Origin: Escherichia phage T4
Direction: 5' to 3' (one strand)
Sequence record: NC_000866.4
Length of the DNA stretch: 64,000 nt
Part shown: in pieces, positions 5,284-62,195 of the stretch
Position numbering within the stretch: the stretch's first letter is position 1
Layout: each line of letters begins with the position of its first letter
Made by a program: the position numbers and the translations under genes
The notes under the pieces: generated by a model
Told to the model about the DNA's origin: nothing
Databases searched by the model: none
The model's input: the letters and a program-made list of their open reading frames with translations, nothing else

Positions 5284-6414
5284 TTATGGATAGGTATAGA
5301 TGATACCAGTTTCTAAAGCAGTTTTATGAATGATGTATCCATTACGCGATTCTTGGACATCAACTTCTGGATAGTCTTTCATCATCTTCTGGAGAGTGTA
5401 ACGATGCAGGTAATATTTACTATCTGGGTCGTCAGTTTTCCAATCTTTACCTTCTTCGGTCATTTTTTGGATTTCATCCATAACCCACCAACCGCACCAG
5501 ATGTAAGCTGAGCTACGGTGTGGAAGAGGATGAACATAAGGTAATTCACCTTCTGGTTCTGGAGCAACTTTAGCCGTGACTGTTACATTACCAGTTTTGG
5601 TAACGGTTACAGGGTTATAATCTGCAGCAGTAACAGTTGCAGTAACTTCAATAGTTTGACTTCCAACAGATGAGGTATCGACAGTATATACGTTAGTTGA
5701 CCCTTCTACAGGAGAAGAATCTTTCTTCCATGAGTAAGTAATTTGTGCTTCTTCTGGAGCACCCGTAACATTAGCCGTAAATGTAGCCGAAGCATCTTGC
5801 TGAACATTAATAGAAGGAGGAGTCAATGTAACCTGTGGATTCATTGTCTTCTTATTAACCGTTAATGATACTTCATTAGAAGTAACGCTTAGTGCATCAT
5901 AATCTGTCGCGGTTACTTGGGCTACGCATTTAATTCTTTTTACTCCACTTGTAGTTGGAGTATAGCTAAATGTAGAGTTAGTTTCTCCACCAACTTGTGA
6001 ATCATCTACATACCACTGATACGTAGCAGATGCTCCATCAGGTTGAGAAGCTAAGGCAGCAGTAAATTGAACTGGGGTTCCAATCACTCCAGCCGCAGGA
6101 CTAGCAGGAGTTACGGCTAAGGTAGTCGTCTGTGTCTTATTTTTAACTGTGATAGTTGTTGTCGCTTCAGCCGTTTCCGGGCCTCCTTCAGAAAGTGTAT
6201 TTGTTGCAACTACTTTAATAGTCTTTTGACCGGCAGGTCCTTTTAGTACATAACTAAAAGTTGCTTCAGCTCCATCTTGTGGAACATTATCTACGCTCCA
6301 AGCATATGTAATAGTTCCGCCTCCAGTTTGACCACTGGGTGTAGCAGTAAACTGCTTAGTTTCATCAATAACCCCTGTAGGTGTTTTAGGAGTTATATCA
6401 ACTGTAAAAGTCAT
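5284..6414 (-). CDS. hoc: Highly immunogenic outer capsid protein Hoc
   Basis: 376-aa ORF, ATG verified; repeated Ig-like Thr/Val-rich modules; size and position match T4 Hoc. Confidence 0.92.
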   Translation of the reverse strand: MTFTVDITPKTPTGVIDETKQFTATPSGQTGGGTITYAWSVDNVPQDGAEATFSYVLKGPAGQKTIKVVATNTLSEGGPETAEATTTITVKNKTQTTTLAVTPASPAAGVIGTPVQFTAALASQPDGASATYQWYVDDSQVGGETNSTFSYTPTTSGVKRIKCVAQVTATDYDALSVTSNEVSLTVNKKTMNPQVTLTPPSINVQQDASATFTANVTGAPEEAQITYSWKKDSSPVEGSTNVYTVDTSSVGSQTIEVTATVTAADYNPVTVTKTGNVTVTAKVAPEPEGELPYVHPLPHRSSAYIWCGWWVMDEIQKMTEEGKDWKTDDPDSKYYLHRYTLQKMMKDYPEVDVQESRNGYIIHKTALETGIIYTYP

Positions 6415-6423
6415 AAGTTATCC

Positions 6424-7104
6424 TTATTTTAATGTTACGAAAGAAGAGTTGCGTGTTTCACGAATTAAAACTGATCCATCGCGATTAATGTAATAAATTA
6501 AGCTAAATAAAGTTTGGTGTGCTGACGCATGTTCAAAACTAGTTGGGTGAGATTTCCAATCAGGAGTTTCAGCAATCCATTGATAAATCCACCAAGGAAC
6601 AGTACAGAATCCTAGATTTTTTCCAATCAGTTGAAGATTCGGACTAAAGTTTTCCGGAAGAGTAAATACAGACGGCTTTTCAGATTCAATAATCTCAGCT
6701 ACAGCCTGTTCGAATTTTTCTTCAACAAAAGGAGTATCTTCAATCAAAACATCGGTATTTTCAGGAATTTTATCCGTTTCTACTACTTCAATTTTAATGT
6801 CAGATTTAATCGGAGAATCAATCAGAAGTGCTGCTTCTGGATTGACTTCTTCATCGTCATATTTTAATCCCTCTGCGGCATCAGCAGCATCAATTAAGTC
6901 TTTAATAGATAACCCATCAGTCTCTGGCATAGGTTCACTAGCGAGCTTCTGGAGGGCTTCTTCAATATCAACAACGATATTATCAAAAGATTTATTCTTT
7001 TTGACCTTTATACCAAACTGTTCAGCATATTCAGCTAATTTAGCTTTAGCTTCTTTGTTATCATCAAGAGCCTTCAGCTCTGCAATATAATCTTTATCTA
7101 TCAT
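6424..7104 (-). CDS. inh: Inh, inhibitor of prohead protease
   Basis: 226-aa acidic ORF at the T4 inh position; ATG verified. Confidence 0.8.
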   Translation of the reverse strand: MIDKDYIAELKALDDNKEAKAKLAEYAEQFGIKVKKNKSFDNIVVDIEEALQKLASEPMPETDGLSIKDLIDAADAAEGLKYDDEEVNPEAALLIDSPIKSDIKIEVVETDKIPENTDVLIEDTPFVEEKFEQAVAEIIESEKPSVFTLPENFSPNLQLIGKNLGFCTVPWWIYQWIAETPDWKSHPTSFEHASAHQTLFSLIYYINRDGSVLIRETRNSSFVTLK

Positions 7105-7153
7105 AATATTTCCTCAGTATAAATATAGATATATTTATTACTCGGAAAATAGT

Positions 7154-7771
7154 ATGTACCACTTTGTATATGAAACAACAAATCTAATAAATGGTAAAAA
7201 GTATATAGGAAAGCACTCTACTGATGACTTGAATGATGGTTACCTTGGTTCCGGTAAGGCAATTCAGCAGGCTATAAAGAAATATGGTGAAAACAATTTC
7301 TCTAGAACAATACTAAAAGAGTTTAAAACTTCCGAAGAAGCGTACATGTATGAAGAAGAAATTATAACTCCTGAACTAATAAAAAGCAAAAATTATTATA
7401 ATATGAAACCTGGTGGAATTGGTGGAATTGTTATGACTACAGATGTTATAGCAAAGATGAAAGAATCTTCCGCTAAAAGATTTGAAAACTCACCGGGCAC
7501 GGTATTAGGTAAAACTTGTTATACTAATGGAACTAAAAATATTTTTATTAAACCTGGAGAACTTGTTCCAGAAGGATTTGTAAAAGGGATGGTTCATCCT
7601 AATAGAAAGTCCAGAAAAGGATGTAAAGTCAAACCGACTACCACAGGAACTTTTTGGGTCAATAATGGCGCAATAAATAAATTAATACAACCAGACGGTA
7701 TTATTCCCGACGGATTTATTAAAGGTCGTCTCATGAAAAGAGATTCTAAAGGCAAATTTAGTAAGGCATAA
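7154..7771 (+). CDS. segE: GIY-YIG homing endonuclease SegE
   Basis: N-terminal GIY-YIG motif HFVYETTNLINGKKYIGKH; 205 aa; immediately upstream of uvsW. Confidence 0.85.
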   Translation: MYHFVYETTNLINGKKYIGKHSTDDLNDGYLGSGKAIQQAIKKYGENNFSRTILKEFKTSEEAYMYEEEIITPELIKSKNYYNMKPGGIGGIVMTTDVIAKMKESSAKRFENSPGTVLGKTCYTNGTKNIFIKPGELVPEGFVKGMVHPNRKSRKGCKVKPTTTGTFWVNNGAINKLIQPDGIIPDGFIKGRLMKRDSKGKFSKA

Positions 7772-41671: not shown

Positions 41672-41899
41672 TTATTGTTCAATCAGTCCCATGTAAAATT
41701 CTGCGTCTTCAGAATCCATGCCATCACAATATTCATTAGCCATAAAGCGGGTGAGGTCTTCAAGAGGACCTTCAATAACGATTTGAATACTCCAAAACTT
41801 AGAATCTTGCACGCTTGTGATACTAAGTTCAGGATAACGATTACGAATAATCTCTTCAATATATTCAAAATCAACGATGTCAATATCAACTTTAGCCAT
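41672..41899 (-). CDS. hypothetical protein (frd.3 position)
   Basis: 75-aa ORF. Confidence 0.55.
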
Positions 41900-41934
41900 A
41901 TTATTTTCCTCTTTAATTATTAGCAGTATTGCCG

Positions 41935-41995
41935 ATAGTTGTATAGTACCATAAAGCTTTATGCTTGTAAACCGTTTTGTGAAAAAATTTTTAAA
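41935..41995 (-). promoter_or_regulatory. T4-type early promoter with A/T-rich upstream element
   Basis: minus strand AAAATTTTTTCACAAAACGGTTTACA, 17 nt, TACTATAC. Confidence 0.6.
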
Positions 41996-55317: not shown

Positions 55318-55974
55318 ATGGCAGCACCTAGAATATCATTTTCGCCCTCTGATATTCTATTTGGTGTTCTAGATCGCTTGTTCAAAGATAACGCTACCGG
55401 GAAGGTTCTTGCTTCCCGGGTAGCTGTCGTAATTCTTTTGTTTATAATGGCGATTGTTTGGTATAGGGGAGATAGTTTCTTTGAGTACTATAAGCAATCA
55501 AAGTATGAAACATACAGTGAAATTATTGAAAAGGAAAGAACTGCACGCTTTGAATCTGTCGCCCTGGAACAACTCCAGATAGTTCATATATCATCTGAGG
55601 CAGACTTTAGTGCGGTGTATTCTTTCCGCCCTAAAAACTTAAACTATTTTGTTGATATTATAGCATACGAAGGAAAATTACCTTCAACAATAAGTGAAAA
55701 ATCACTTGGAGGATATCCTGTTGATAAAACTATGGATGAATATACAGTTCATTTAAATGGACGTCATTATTATTCCAACTCAAAATTTGCTTTTTTACCA
55801 ACTAAAAAGCCTACTCCCGAAATAAACTACATGTACAGTTGTCCATATTTTAATTTGGATAATATCTATGCTGGAACGATAACCATGTACTGGTATAGAA
55901 ATGATCATATAAGTAATGACCGCCTTGAATCAATATGTGCTCAGGCGGCCAGAATATTAGGAAGGGCTAAATAA
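55318..55974 (+). CDS. t: Holin T
   Basis: 218-aa ORF with a single N-terminal TM segment (VAVVILLFIMAIVWY) and large periplasmic domain. Confidence 0.9.
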   Translation: MAAPRISFSPSDILFGVLDRLFKDNATGKVLASRVAVVILLFIMAIVWYRGDSFFEYYKQSKYETYSEIIEKERTARFESVALEQLQIVHISSEADFSAVYSFRPKNLNYFVDIIAYEGKLPSTISEKSLGGYPVDKTMDEYTVHLNGRHYYSNSKFAFLPTKKPTPEINYMYSCPYFNLDNIYAGTITMYWYRNDHISNDRLESICAQAARILGRAK

Positions 55975-56247
55975 TTATTTGTTCGTATACATCTCTAGAT
56001 ATCGATATACACCCTCAAAACCCTCGTTGAATTCGTCGATGAGGGTTTTCTTATCTTCTTGAGTTAATTCAGAAACAATTTTACGGAATGAATTTTGATT
56101 TAACTTTCTACCTTCATGCGTTACTCCAATCTCATTTAGAAATGCAATAAAATTAGCACGATTCTCAACAATATCTTCTCTGGAAAATTTAATCAAAATA
56201 GATGCAACAGTAATAATTTCACGAACTGTATCAATGTTTTTATTCAT
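55975..56247 (-). CDS. asiA: AsiA anti-sigma70 factor
   Basis: 90-aa ORF recognised as T4 AsiA (MNKNIDTVREIITVASILIKFSREDIVENRANFIAFLNEIG...). Confidence 0.93.
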   Translation of the reverse strand: MNKNIDTVREIITVASILIKFSREDIVENRANFIAFLNEIGVTHEGRKLNQNSFRKIVSELTQEDKKTLIDEFNEGFEGVYRYLEMYTNK

Positions 56248-56259
56248 TAACTATACCAC

Positions 56260-56412
56260 TCAATTAGTTGACTTTGTTATAATATCATCAGACGCTTGAT
56301 TTGTAAACTGGTCTGTGTAATTTTCTTCAAAAATTTTTTCTACGAATTCCTTGAACGATTCACGTTCCTGAGCTACATTATGCTCGATTACCTTTTCAAG
56401 ATTATGACTCAT
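56260..56412 (-). CDS. small acidic hypothetical protein (hand-read ORF)
   Basis: about 50-aa ORF MSHNLEKVIEHNVAQERESFKEF... between asiA and arn. Confidence 0.35.
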   Translation of the reverse strand: MSHNLEKVIEHNVAQERESFKEFVEKIFEENYTDQFTNQASDDIITKSTN

Positions 56413-56687
56413 TCGAAATAATCTTCAATTTCATAATCATGGACATAAATCATTATAGTTTTTAATACATCATCAATATTTTTTCCTGGAGCTGGAATTA
56501 CGTAAAAATACCCTGCTTTTGAGAGGTCTTTATAAGTTCCAATCAAGAAATCATTATTCTCAAGATGTAACTCTTCAACTAATTCATTGACAATTGAATG
56601 GTATAGGTTTGGCAGAAACTTATATAGCTTTTCTAGAATATCAATTTTGAATGTATATTGAACCACGGACTGAGAATCAATAATCAT
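56409..56687 (-). CDS. arn: Arn anti-restriction protein (McrBC inhibitor)
   Basis: 92-aa acidic ORF at the T4 arn position. Confidence 0.8.
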   Translation of the reverse strand: MIIDSQSVVQYTFKIDILEKLYKFLPNLYHSIVNELVEELHLENNDFLIGTYKDLSKAGYFYVIPAPGKNIDDVLKTIMIYVHDYEIEDYFE

Positions 56688-56770
56688 AGACCTTCCCCTT
56701 ATGTTTCTGTTTGCGATTAGATTCTTTAAACGCTTTCTTCTTATCCTTATGAACAGAAGCTTTATTAAAA

Positions 56771-56989
56771 TTATGCTTTGCGACTAAATTGTTCATAGTG
56801 CTGAATTACCTCTCTTAAACATTTGCATGTGAATGAAAACTTTTTAGCTACACCACATTCAAATATATGTTCTCTTAAATCGCGTGTATCGGTATATCCC
56901 ATCTCAACAATAAAATGCCGTATTAGATTTTTATCTTTATCGTTTAGAGAATTAAAATAATCAGATTTTGAATTAATTTCCCTGGCCAA
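56771..56989 (-). CDS. hypothetical protein (arn.1 position)
   Basis: 72-aa ORF with a CxxC-like cluster. Confidence 0.55.
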   Translation of the reverse strand: MAREINSKSDYFNSLNDKDKNLIRHFIVEMGYTDTRDLREHIFECGVAKKFSFTCKCLREVIQHYEQFSRKA

Positions 56990-57269
56990 ATTGAATCACC
57001 TTCAGTTGACGTTTTAACTCTTTTATCATCTCTTCGTTCATCGCAATATAAAGATCGCGTAGAGCAGGTTTTAGCATTCCATTTACTGGAGAACTAAATG
57101 GACATACATAATCTTTTCCTACGAGCTTTTTAGTGAATTCCATATCACAGAACTGAAATCCCGGCTCATTGGTATAAATTCCCCAATTAGTTGACATCAT
57201 TTTATTGGCATATTCCAGTGCCTGGATTTGATTCATAATTCCATCAATTTGAAACTTTTTAATATTCAT
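56973..57269 (-). CDS. hypothetical protein (arn.2 position)
   Basis: 98-aa ORF. Confidence 0.55.
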   Translation of the reverse strand: MNIKKFQIDGIMNQIQALEYANKMMSTNWGIYTNEPGFQFCDMEFTKKLVGKDYVCPFSSPVNGMLKPALRDLYIAMNEEMIKELKRQLKVIQFGQGN

Positions 57270-57727
57270 TAGTAAAGGTCCTCAGAGTAAAGTTCTTTTT
57301 CACTACCACGTTCAATACTTACTTGTCCAGCGTAAGTTGCAATAATCATTGCTTCTTCACGTGTCCAATAATTACTATATTGGTCAATAAACCCTTGGTC
57401 ATCATCACAAACTTGCTGAGTAACTAATTGAGGTTTAACTACATCTAAAACTTCTGCCATATCTTTAGAATAATGACGAGCACCTGGAATAATAAGAGTT
57501 CGTCCATCTTTTAATTTAAAACGGTTGGCTGCGCAAACAATTCGTCGTTGATACTTTTGGTTTTCATCCCAGTACGCAGTCTGCCAACAGATTTCAGGAA
57601 CTTCTTTCAGAATATCTTCTTCTGTGCATTTATAACCATGCGCTTTAAATTTTTCAACAAGACTTTCTGGAGTTTCACGAGATAAAGGAACATTCAGCAT
57701 TTTTAAACGATTGATAAATGGGTTCAT
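57269..57727 (-). CDS. hypothetical protein (arn.3 position)
   Basis: 152-aa ORF. Confidence 0.6.
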
Positions 57728-57930
57728 TTAAACCATCCTTTAATACGCTGCCACAAAGTTTTCTGTTGAGCTTTGTTGACGCCAATTGAGCGAATAACCG
57801 GTTGAGATTCCTGGAATTCTTTATAATCAGCAAGGTAAATTTCGTAAGCTGCATCCGTAAATGAACTTATCGCTGCCATAAAATTATTGCGAATACCTAC
57901 TGGAGCATCTTTACTTTCACGAATGATCAT
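57724..57930 (-). CDS. hypothetical protein (arn.4 position)
   Basis: 68-aa ORF. Confidence 0.5.
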
Positions 57931-58063
57931 GTATTTACCAGTCTTAATCTTTACGATAGTTCCAAGATAAGCTCCATGGTACCAAATATCCCAACCCTCT
58001 TGAGTAGGTTCTGCGCAACGACGAAGTTCATTGACAATTTCTAACTTGTTTATTATTTATTCC

Positions 58064-58699
58064 TCACAGTTCAGATGCTACAGTGATTACAGCTTCAATG
58101 TTTTCTGCCGAGCGTTTAATGTCAAGATACACATTACCGTTTTTAGCGATTTTACATGACATTCCGATGTCAGTAAATTTCTGAATATGATGTTCCATCA
58201 TTTTGTATCCAAAAATTCGCATATTTCCATTGTTATTAATTTCAAAATTACGAATTCCGTTAGTGCGTTTTTCTAAAATAGCAAGATAATTACTACGATA
58301 AATTTCAACCTTTTTAAGAACAAATCCATTTTTATCTAAAAGTTTTAACATGAGGTCTTTATCTTCTTCCATATCGGAAGTAATCTCGCGAGCTTTACGA
58401 GTTGCTCGTTTTTTCAGCAGTTCCGGAGCATTTTCCTGTGCATATAAAGTTGCTGCATTTGAAATAATATCCTGAGCTTCACCAGTAATGATTAATCCAT
58501 CACCAGATTTCTCCACCAGGCCTTTTTTAATCAATACCCCAATATTACTATTAACTACTGCGTTACCTAAATCTGGATGCACCTCACGAACTTCTGCAGC
58601 TGTAATGAAATCTTTCTTAGCAATGGTAATTAAAATCGTAGCAGTTTTTTCATTCAGAACATCGTTAGAAGCTTTGATGATGTAAGTTACTTTAGACAT
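58064..58699 (-). CDS. motA: MotA middle-promoter transcription activator
   Basis: 211-aa ORF recognised as T4 MotA. Confidence 0.92.
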   Translation of the reverse strand: MSKVTYIIKASNDVLNEKTATILITIAKKDFITAAEVREVHPDLGNAVVNSNIGVLIKKGLVEKSGDGLIITGEAQDIISNAATLYAQENAPELLKKRATRKAREITSDMEEDKDLMLKLLDKNGFVLKKVEIYRSNYLAILEKRTNGIRNFEINNNGNMRIFGYKMMEHHIQKFTDIGMSCKIAKNGNVYLDIKRSAENIEAVITVASEL

Positions 58700-58732
58700 T
58701 TTCTAATCTCCGTAATTCTGTATCAGTAGTTG

Positions 58733-58795
58733 ATAGTTGTATAGTACCACAGTATGCTTTGGTTGTAAACCGTTTTGTGAAAAAATTTTTAAAAT
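58733..58795 (-). promoter_or_regulatory. T4-type early promoter upstream of motA
   Basis: minus strand AAAATTTTTTCACAAAACGGTTTACA, 17 nt, TACTATAC; near-identical to the element at 41935-41995. Confidence 0.6.
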
Positions 58796-61908: not shown

Positions 61909-62147
61909 TTTTTAAAAATATTCGTAATAAATGTGAATACCAACTACTACCGCTGAAACCTGTGCAACCCACCACGCACAAGCAATAAGTACAGAATTCA
62001 AAATTTTCATAATAACCTCATTACAAAAGTAAATGTTAAACAAATTACTGGAATACTAATTAACCAAACAAAACACCACCATAATGAACTCATAGTTCAA
62101 TCTCAGCGATTTTCATTTTATTCTCCAAATCCGTATCAGTAGTTGAT

Positions 62148-62195
62148 AGTTGTATAGTACCACGGTCCTTGTGGTATGTAAACTGTTTTGTGAAA
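62148..62195 (-). promoter_or_regulatory. T4-type early promoter immediately downstream of denB
   Basis: minus strand CACAAAACAGTTTACA, spacer, TACTATAC; shares a 31-nt identical block with 58718-58748. Confidence 0.55.

Follow-up and report, generated by a model that had tools for sequence, protein, structure and literature searches.

The small genes between motA and asiA of bacteriophage T4: candidate accessory genes of early host takeover

The 64,000-nucleotide stretch of the Escherichia phage T4 genome analysed here (record NC_000866.4; hereafter, the window) carries, at positions 55,975 to 58,699, the genes motA, arn and asiA together with six small open reading frames (ORFs), namely arn.1 to arn.4, asiA.1 and an overlooked gene of 39 codons. 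These small ORFs are real genes, and we favour, at a probability of roughly 55%, the reading that they encode early accessory proteins of host takeover, directed against conserved components of the host and not against variable defence systems. T4 is a reference phage in which about half of the genes lack a known role, and the motA–asiA operon sits beside two proteins that reprogram the host RNA polymerase. The genes between motA and asiA have long been known and are thus no discovery in themselves; the arn.1 to arn.4 and asiA.1 ORFs were first deposited in 1995 under the names motA.-1 to motA.-5. What the present analysis adds is a set of corrected gene boundaries, the overlooked gene, a contrast in conservation with Arn, and the family of arn.3 with its putative active site. 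The features are as follows.

58741-58769, minus strand: early sigma-70-type promoter upstream of motA, the predicted start of the unit, resembling other T4 early promoters in the window
58064-58699, minus strand: motA, 211 amino acids (aa), activator of T4 middle transcription (PF09158, E=2e-69; PF09114, E=9e-62; annotated as such in T4T)
57724-58053, minus strand: arn.4, 109 aa; the 68-aa ATG-initiated ORF occupies 57724-57930
57269-57727, minus strand: arn.3, 152 aa
56973-57269, minus strand: arn.2, 98 aa (phrog_1844)
56771-56989, minus strand: arn.1, 72 aa from a TTG start; 43 aa (56771-56902) in the T4 annotation
56677-56796, minus strand: 39-codon gene (DUF7230), without annotation in the T4 reference
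56409-56687, minus strand: arn, 92 aa, DNA-mimic inhibitor of McrBC (PF22134, E=8e-56)
56260-56412, minus strand: asiA.1, 50 aa, isoelectric point (pI) 4.6 (phrog_3762)
55975-56247, minus strand: asiA, 90 aa, anti-sigma-70 factor (PF09010, E=1e-42), the final gene of the unit

Positions 55900-58750 are 99.9% identical, over 2851 bases, to T4T, T4 'wild' and other T4 records, and the 5.8 kb around the region differ from T4T by two bases only; the window is therefore the reference phage T4 genome. The T4T annotation gives the same order (asiA, asiA.1, arn, arn.1-4, motA), entirely on the minus strand. An initial annotation, made from the sequence alone, had placed AsiA, Arn and MotA here, and Pfam agrees (PF09010, PF22134, and PF09158 with PF09114, respectively). 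Its small ORFs of 72, 98, 152 and 68 aa, plus an acidic one of 50 aa, likewise exist at the positions given and are genuine; the last of these is asiA.1. Its 72-aa arn.1 is to be preferred over the 43-aa version of the T4 annotation on the grounds of homolog coverage, start codons and a conserved motif. Its 68-aa arn.4, by contrast, must be lengthened to 109 aa, and its list of ORFs missed the conserved gene at 56677-56796.

That these ORFs are genes is evident from their relatives. Each matches between 483 and 1576 phage records, and the differences among homologs fall mostly at third codon positions. Proteins of all five annotated ORFs (Arn.1-4 and AsiA.1) have been detected in infected cells (PMC9697503). 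The ORFs are short, and Pyrodigal scored asiA.1 at 12.5 and the 39-codon ORF at 0.7 in OZ209023, so that some of them could be thought chance open frames in AT-rich DNA. With hundreds to more than 1000 homologs per ORF, the third-position bias and the detected proteins, this explanation is largely refuted and scarcely credible; asiA.1, which occurs in close relatives only (483 records) and looks like a shortened remnant, is the weakest case.

The arrangement of the genes points to a single transcription unit. From motA to asiA, adjacent genes share 1 to 26 nt or leave gaps of no more than 12 nt, and two of the junctions are 4-nt ATGA overlaps. No terminator-like site was found on the minus strand from 58800 to 55975; the only such predictions on that strand, two that overlap, describe a single hairpin (58822-58801) that lies upstream of this unit's promoter. 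Likewise, the coding strand proved to have no MotA box (TGCTT) that could mark a middle promoter, which suggests transcription from the early promoter, and a search of the region against Rfam matched no family. The tight packing and lack of an internal terminator-like site, taken together, argue that motA to asiA form one early, translationally coupled unit read from the motA promoter, so that the small ORFs, whose co-location with arn the initial annotation had noted, belong to the same early unit as arn. The promoter region itself (58701-58750) is 88% and 77% identical to 62116-62163 and 41889-41951, presumably other T4 early promoters.

Published data on infected cells bear on this unit. 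In the supplement to a time-resolved omics study of T4, arn.2, arn.3 and arn.4 are classed as early at both the RNA and the protein level, while arn.1 combines early RNA with middle protein, and asiA.1 combines early RNA with late protein (PMC9697503). A genome-wide T4 knock-down by CRISPRi-ART in a laboratory strain yielded a list of hypothetical genes that affect fitness, and arn.1 to arn.4 are not on it. Literature searches on the UniProt and Pfam names of arn.1 to arn.4 found nothing, and a T4 structural-genomics paper does not mention these genes.

The course of events that we envisage begins at the motA promoter, from which motA, arn.4, arn.3, arn.2, arn.1, the 39-codon gene, arn, asiA.1 and asiA would be expressed in that order. 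The small ORFs would be translationally coupled genes whose products are made in the first minutes of infection, are probably dispensable on a laboratory host, to judge from the CRISPRi-ART hit list, and would target conserved host components, with arn.3 acting as an enzyme or a ligand binder.

Part of the evidence for this reading comes from the conservation of the locus. Searching IMG/VR with a profile of arn.3 homologs yielded 79 loci, and 31 of these were taken as diverged T4-like loci, in which MotA is less than 70% identical to that of T4. Searches of these 31 loci by tblastn gave the following occurrences and median identities to T4.

arn.4: 31/31 loci, 66%
arn.3: 31/31 loci, 60%
39-codon gene: 31/31 loci, 74%
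arn.2: 23/31 loci, 40%
arn.1: 14/31 loci, 62%
MotA: 31/31 loci, 52%
AsiA: 31/31 loci, 53%
gp52 (topoisomerase): 31/31 loci, 72%

The order motA, arn.4, arn.3, (arn.2), (arn.1), 39-codon gene, variable cargo, asiA is rarely broken, one exception being the two loci (L019 and L020) in which arn.1 comes before arn.3. On these comparisons, arn.4, arn.3 and the 39-codon gene exceed MotA and AsiA in conservation, the 39-codon gene ranking with the best conserved of the operon, and the three appear to behave like core genes with conserved targets.

Arn, the only protein of the set with a proven anti-restriction role, appears to follow a different course, one of arms-race divergence. T4 Arn had almost no tblastn match in diverged T4-like loci. 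A profile built from the acidic proteins of 86-99 aa that occupy the slot before asiA in other phages did, however, recover T4 Arn (3WX4) with E=7.7e-8 and an hhalign probability of 95.5%. These diverged homologs are about 25% identical to Arn and are detectable only by profile, which is why we regard Arn as kept in position while evolving very fast. The idea that arn is confined to close relatives of T4 was thereby rejected, as diverged homologs sit in the same slot elsewhere.

In loci L007-L075 this slot, which follows the 39-codon gene and precedes asiA, carries variable cargo. It holds fast-diverging Arn homologs, a family of 100-125 aa ending in NGFT.., and a family of 88-100 aa with the motif EA..C.W...VR. 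A by-eye likeness of the latter family, upstream of asiA, to Tad2/DUF2829 was considered and dropped, there being no support for it from Pfam or the Protein Data Bank (PDB). The N-terminal motif MSHNLE.V.E of asiA.1 is shared with proteins of 88-112 aa that adjoin asiA upstream in other phages, and because of this common motif asiA.1 is probably a shortened remnant of such proteins. The recurrence of MSHNLE.V.E in asiA.1 and several cargo-slot families suggests shuffling at the starts of genes.

The contrast with Arn bears directly on what the small ORFs might do. The initial annotation had ranked them, by their co-location with anti-defence and transcription-takeover genes, as the best candidates in the window for anti-defence or host-shutoff functions. 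Membership in the same early unit and early expression are in its favour; the lack of any anti-defence match and the core-gene conservation weaken the anti-defence part, and the idea is best seen as a plausible but unproven prioritisation. In its strict form, it holds that the small ORFs are dedicated anti-defence proteins like Arn, each directed against a bacterial immune system such as a restriction enzyme or a system that signals by nucleotides, with arn.3 serving as a sponge for, or an enzyme that degrades, an immune signal. The ORFs do share an operon with an inhibitor of McrBC, are expressed early (PMC9697503) and seem dispensable in the laboratory, as far as the CRISPRi-ART hit list indicates; arn.1 and arn.2 are variably present (14/31 and 23/31 loci), and the neighbouring slot carries fast-evolving Arn homologs and other variable cargo. 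In addition, arn.3 is like known signal sponges and enzymes in its invariant polar pocket and its spread among phages, its structure is weakly similar to that of polyvalent proteins for which delivery in counter-defence has been proposed, and the same suggestion has been made in a preprint on phage T2 (10.64898/2026.06.19.733364).

Against this, none of the small ORFs resembles any known anti-defence protein or fold. Searches of Pfam, PHROGs, NCBIfam and PADLOC with all six returned only families of unknown function, and no known anti-defence or defence protein was matched in these databases, by PDB sequence, or by fold (the last for arn.3 and arn.4). The matches in PADLOC-DB were at chance level (E=0.0026 and 0.0035 over 25-42 residues), and the Arn family, PF22134, was matched by the arn ORF only and not by arn.1 to arn.4, asiA.1 or the 39-codon gene. 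Products of arn.1, arn.2 and arn.4 are basic (pI 8.5, 8.6 and 9.2, respectively; that of arn.3 is 5.2), unlike acidic DNA mimics. Finally, all sampled T4-like phages carry arn.4, arn.3 and the 39-codon gene, which evolve slowly there, as opposed to the roughly 25% identity of Arn homologs; because such genes do not look like an arms-race anti-defence protein, guilt by association with Arn is weak. A dedicated anti-defence role for the whole set is possible but clearly less likely than the reading favoured here, and it may fit the variably present arn.1 and arn.2 better than the three core genes. The conservation pattern thus warns against assuming anti-defence functions from arn-derived names alone. 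Many GenBank records, as well as phrog_4452, call homologs of arn.1 to arn.4 'anti-restriction nuclease', a label derived from gene names and not from evidence.

Within the set, arn.3 has homologs well outside the T4 group. Residues 1-45 of its product form a variable helical extension, and the conserved core domain spans approximately residues 55-152. Nearly all of the listed homologs carry the precomputed Pfam assignment PF26092 (T4_Y16D), and the membership of arn.3 itself is based on these homologs and on shared motifs (AA..R / RH / QGFxD / R..A / Q / LxSExLY). Among 151 representatives, R84, H85, G112, F113, R123, L146 and E149 are invariant, while A67, S148, Q111, D115, A126 and Q135 are conserved in 97-99%; the chain ends with LxSExLY. 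When the arn.3 profile was run against 1.84 billion cluster representatives, 3567 clusters (at 50% identity) were matched at E<=1e-3 and 1456 at E<=1e-10. Many of the best 150 listed matches are free-standing proteins of 83-110 aa, the end of the domain always coincides with the C-terminus, and the N-terminal extensions of long homologs contain no Pfam domain. Outside the T4 group, the cultured phages with a homolog number well over a thousand, and the cultured carriers as a whole include T4-like, Vi01-like, rV5/phAPEC8-like and jumbo phages; many of the phages with arn.3 lack motA or asiA.

The genomic setting of the distant homologs is not conserved. No neighbour recurs consistently: of about 41 loci, even the largest neighbour clusters covered no more than 10, and the biggest of these clusters looks like an artefact of antisense ORFs. 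In four distant, unrelated phages that were looked up, the homolog lies amid small, tightly packed genes of early type, mostly without Pfam hits. Two individual contigs are also worth recording. One IMG/VR T4-like contig (L012, approximately 6001-7354) has two arn.3 copies and an extra arn.2-like sequence, maybe a local duplication. Another, a 66-kb metagenomic phage contig (L082), encodes a 91-aa arn.3-type protein as well as a nicotinamide phosphoribosyltransferase (NAMPT) and, directly downstream, a metallophosphatase (379-1812 and 5314-6051); this is a single case and no recurrent association.

Searches of PDB sequences and profiles with arn.3 gave nothing significant, and its confident structure model matched no informative known fold. 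Foldseek comparison of the model with BFVD viral models retrieved uncharacterised homologs and, weakly, segments of three large polyvalent proteins (E=5e-3, 2e-2 and 0.27; probabilities 0.96, 0.97 and 0.82; 17-24% identity), and none of the Pfam LPD models matches arn.3. The presence of invariant Arg, His, Asp, Ser and Glu residues in a 95-residue domain leads us to infer catalysis or the binding of a phosphate-bearing ligand; arn.3 would thus be a small enzyme or a binder of a nucleotide or other small ligand, with an invariant R-H / QGFxD / R / Q / SE pocket. A broader and considerably less certain proposal is that arn.3 founds a very large phage-wide family and is a new enzyme or nucleotide-binding module, with a fold that has no solved relative, put to use very early in infection by phages of many unrelated lineages, and that the host small RNA (sRNA) ArcZ may act, through its pairing site, on the arn.1 translation start and not on an intergenic RNase E site. 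Candidate targets of such a module would be an immune signalling molecule and a conserved nucleotide or RNA of the host. Small, confidently predicted, widespread and with few invariant polar residues, arn.3 is the best target for biochemistry in this region.

For arn.4, the corrected boundary is the starting point. Its frame is open throughout 58053-57724, and the 68-aa ORF is merely its tail. The start lies 10 nt past the motA stop codon, and a GAGG Shine-Dalgarno sequence overlaps that stop. At 58051-58053 (minus strand) the window reads ATA; four independently sequenced T4 isolates read ATG, and this very codon is also the ATG start in all of the homologs examined (~35 of ~35). The majority of the residues that are invariant in the family fall within the 41 N-terminal residues that have no counterpart in the 68-aa form, and this part also has the strongest coding signature, with 43, 15 and 180 differences at codon positions 1, 2 and 3, respectively. 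The ATA probably goes back to an early sequencing error or to a mutation in the stock. Because it was propagated from the reference, Arn.4 is truncated to 68 aa in databases, including the ATG-bearing record MT984581, and the NCBI T4 entry still gives the short form. The T2 record AP018813 (L085) has a 2-nt deletion in arn.4 at approximately 600-625, resulting in a frameshift; this record also misnames products, calling arn.2 'endonuclease II', asiA 'DNA polymerase' and arn.4 'virion structural protein'.

There are 1000 phage records with arn.4, and homologs were found in T4-like phages only. PDB sequence and profile searches gave nothing significant, and as with arn.3, a confident structure model matched no informative known fold. 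The initial annotation had been unable to assign a fold to any of these proteins. The product of arn.4 would be a small alpha/beta protein specific to MotA-carrying phages.

The 39-codon gene matches Pfam PF23876 (DUF7230) by hmmscan with E=1.2e-11 and 44.9 bits, against a gathering cut-off of 27, and belongs to phrog_1359. It shares 26 nt with the end of arn.1 and 11 nt with the beginning of arn, and it is missing from T4T and from the reference-type annotations seen, while some other T4 records call it. Homologs occur in 1217 phage records, and differences among them number 164, 124 and 488 at codon positions 1, 2 and 3, respectively. The product is a lysine-rich peptide with a pI of 10.2 (MNNLVAKH.FNK...HKDKKK...RKQKHKGK), which may, from its composition, bind nucleic acid. 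Its first ~25 residues match several other PHROG families that have different C-termini. No PDB sequence was matched. An ArfA-like role in ribosome rescue was also considered and rejected, hhalign giving a probability of 0.4% against the E. coli ArfA sequence.

It is possible that arn.4 and this peptide, and perhaps arn.1, are auxiliaries of the MotA/AsiA takeover that act on RNA polymerase, sigma-70 or early and middle promoters. We judge this unlikely, and it is the main alternative to be considered for arn.4 and the peptide. The strict synteny of motA–arn.4, the 39-codon gene and asiA across all 31 diverged loci would fit such a role, as would the restriction of arn.4 to T4-like phages, the placement of its start and Shine-Dalgarno sequence at the motA stop, and the similar numbers of records for motA (1141), arn.4 (1000) and the 39-codon gene (1217). 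However, MotA and AsiA are together sufficient for sigma appropriation in vitro; none of the ORFs resembles a transcription factor, the CRISPRi-ART hit list reports no knock-down phenotype, and arn.3 is found in many phages without motA or asiA.

The two remaining genes, arn.2 and arn.1, are variably present. Homologs of arn.2 in the 23 diverged loci are 35-65% identical to it, and PDB sequence and profile searches with arn.2 and arn.1 gave nothing significant. The best PDB sequence matches of an arn.2 homolog profile were to E. coli RaiA/YfiA (E=0.13-0.23), with the same position and a similar length, and an hhalign alignment was colinear over 64 columns, which could be taken to indicate a diverged ribosome-hibernation protein of the RaiA/HPF type acting in the shut-off of host translation. 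These E-values are not significant, however, and the hhalign probability is only 37%. Moreover, Pfam S30AE was matched by 0 of 12 family members, the similarity is concentrated in a single amphipathic C-terminal helix, and the middle of arn.2 looks helical by eye as opposed to three-stranded. Kinship of arn.2 with RaiA/HPF is thus not supported (PDB E=0.13, hhalign 37%, no S30AE match) and we consider it very improbable.

For arn.1, tblastn matches span all 72 residues, down to 35-50% identity, and in relatives codon 1 or 2 is an ATG or a GTG. The TTG at 56989 is preceded, at a distance of 7 nt, by an AAGGTG Shine-Dalgarno sequence, and the invariant motif YFNS.N..K..I..FI.E lies within the first 29 residues of the 72-aa form. 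The 43-aa product of the T4 annotation is therefore too short. The protein would be small and helical and might bind DNA; a more specific assignment as a helix-turn-helix protein had no profile support and stays an impression. The corrected boundaries of arn.1 and arn.4, together with the added gene, matter for cloning, deletion and proteomics searches; the residues under the strongest conservation are missing from the short forms.

The longer arn.1 also changes the reading of a recent report on regulation by a host sRNA. According to a preprint of June 2026 on T2, a close relative of T4, arn.4–arn.3–arn.2–arn.1–arn form one transcript that is stabilised by the host sRNA ArcZ (10.64898/2026.06.19.733364). 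The authors likewise guess at an anti-defence role and call the functions of arn.1 to arn.4 unknown. The site in T4 is as follows.

56976-56985, minus strand: ArcZ pairing site CCAGGGAAAU, perfect complement of AUUUCCCUGG in E. coli K-12 arcZ

Specifically, E. coli K-12 arcZ has GATTTCCCTGGTGTTGG, the complement of which, CCAGGGAAAT, lies at window positions 56985-56976, corresponding to arn.2 +285 to +294, as given for T2 (10.64898/2026.06.19.733364). This direct 10-nt complement was used alone because an energy scan of duplexes with whole ArcZ was dominated by the terminator hairpin and was uninformative. The site spans arn.2 codons 95-98 and, with the corrected TTG start at 56989, arn.1 codons 2-5. 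The arn.1 reading frame, which is open in T2 as well, thereby takes in the 70-nt 'intergenic region' of the preprint along with the RNase E motif GCAUU (56918-56914) of that region. Because the site covers codons 2-5 of corrected arn.1, ArcZ may act at the arn.1 translation start, an alternative that the T2 preprint does not mention and one that gives its report a different reading.

Several points weigh against the view that the small ORFs are accessory takeover proteins with conserved host targets. Identity, gene boundaries, expression and conservation are shown here, but the role and the biochemistry are inferred, and none of the ORFs matched a protein of known activity by sequence or profile, or, for arn.3 and arn.4, by fold. 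The ideas that arn.1 is helical or binds DNA, and that the peptide binds nucleic acid, come from sequence inspection only. Absence from the CRISPRi-ART hit list is weak evidence, because it concerns the list and not the raw scores behind it. Finally, high conservation could equally mean a role internal to the phage.

Comparison with known systems places these genes as follows. The arn.1-arn.4/asiA.1 loci of T4 records are near-identical in DNA, with the same order on the same strand; the database entries differ in giving arn.4 as 68 instead of 109 aa and arn.1 as 43 instead of 72 aa, and in missing the DUF7230 gene. Arn (3WX4, Pfam DM_Arn) resembles the products of arn.1 to arn.4 as a small, early, laboratory-dispensable protein of the same early operon, whereas arn.1 to arn.4 lack PF22134, evolve far more slowly and, in the case of arn.1, arn.2 and arn.4, are basic. 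With the MotA/AsiA system, arn.4, arn.3 and the 39-codon gene share an operon and a T4-like phylogenetic range; their sequences offer no evidence of contact with RNA polymerase, and arn.3 also occurs outside phages with motA and asiA. The large polyvalent proteins of phages and conjugative elements have a weak Foldseek likeness to arn.3, which differs in being free-standing and in having no Pfam LPD match. Finally, nucleotides used in immune signalling are bound or destroyed by phage proteins such as T4 Acb1 and Acb2, or Tad1 and Tad2, and like them, arn.3 is small, early, spread over unrelated phages and endowed with an invariant polar pocket.

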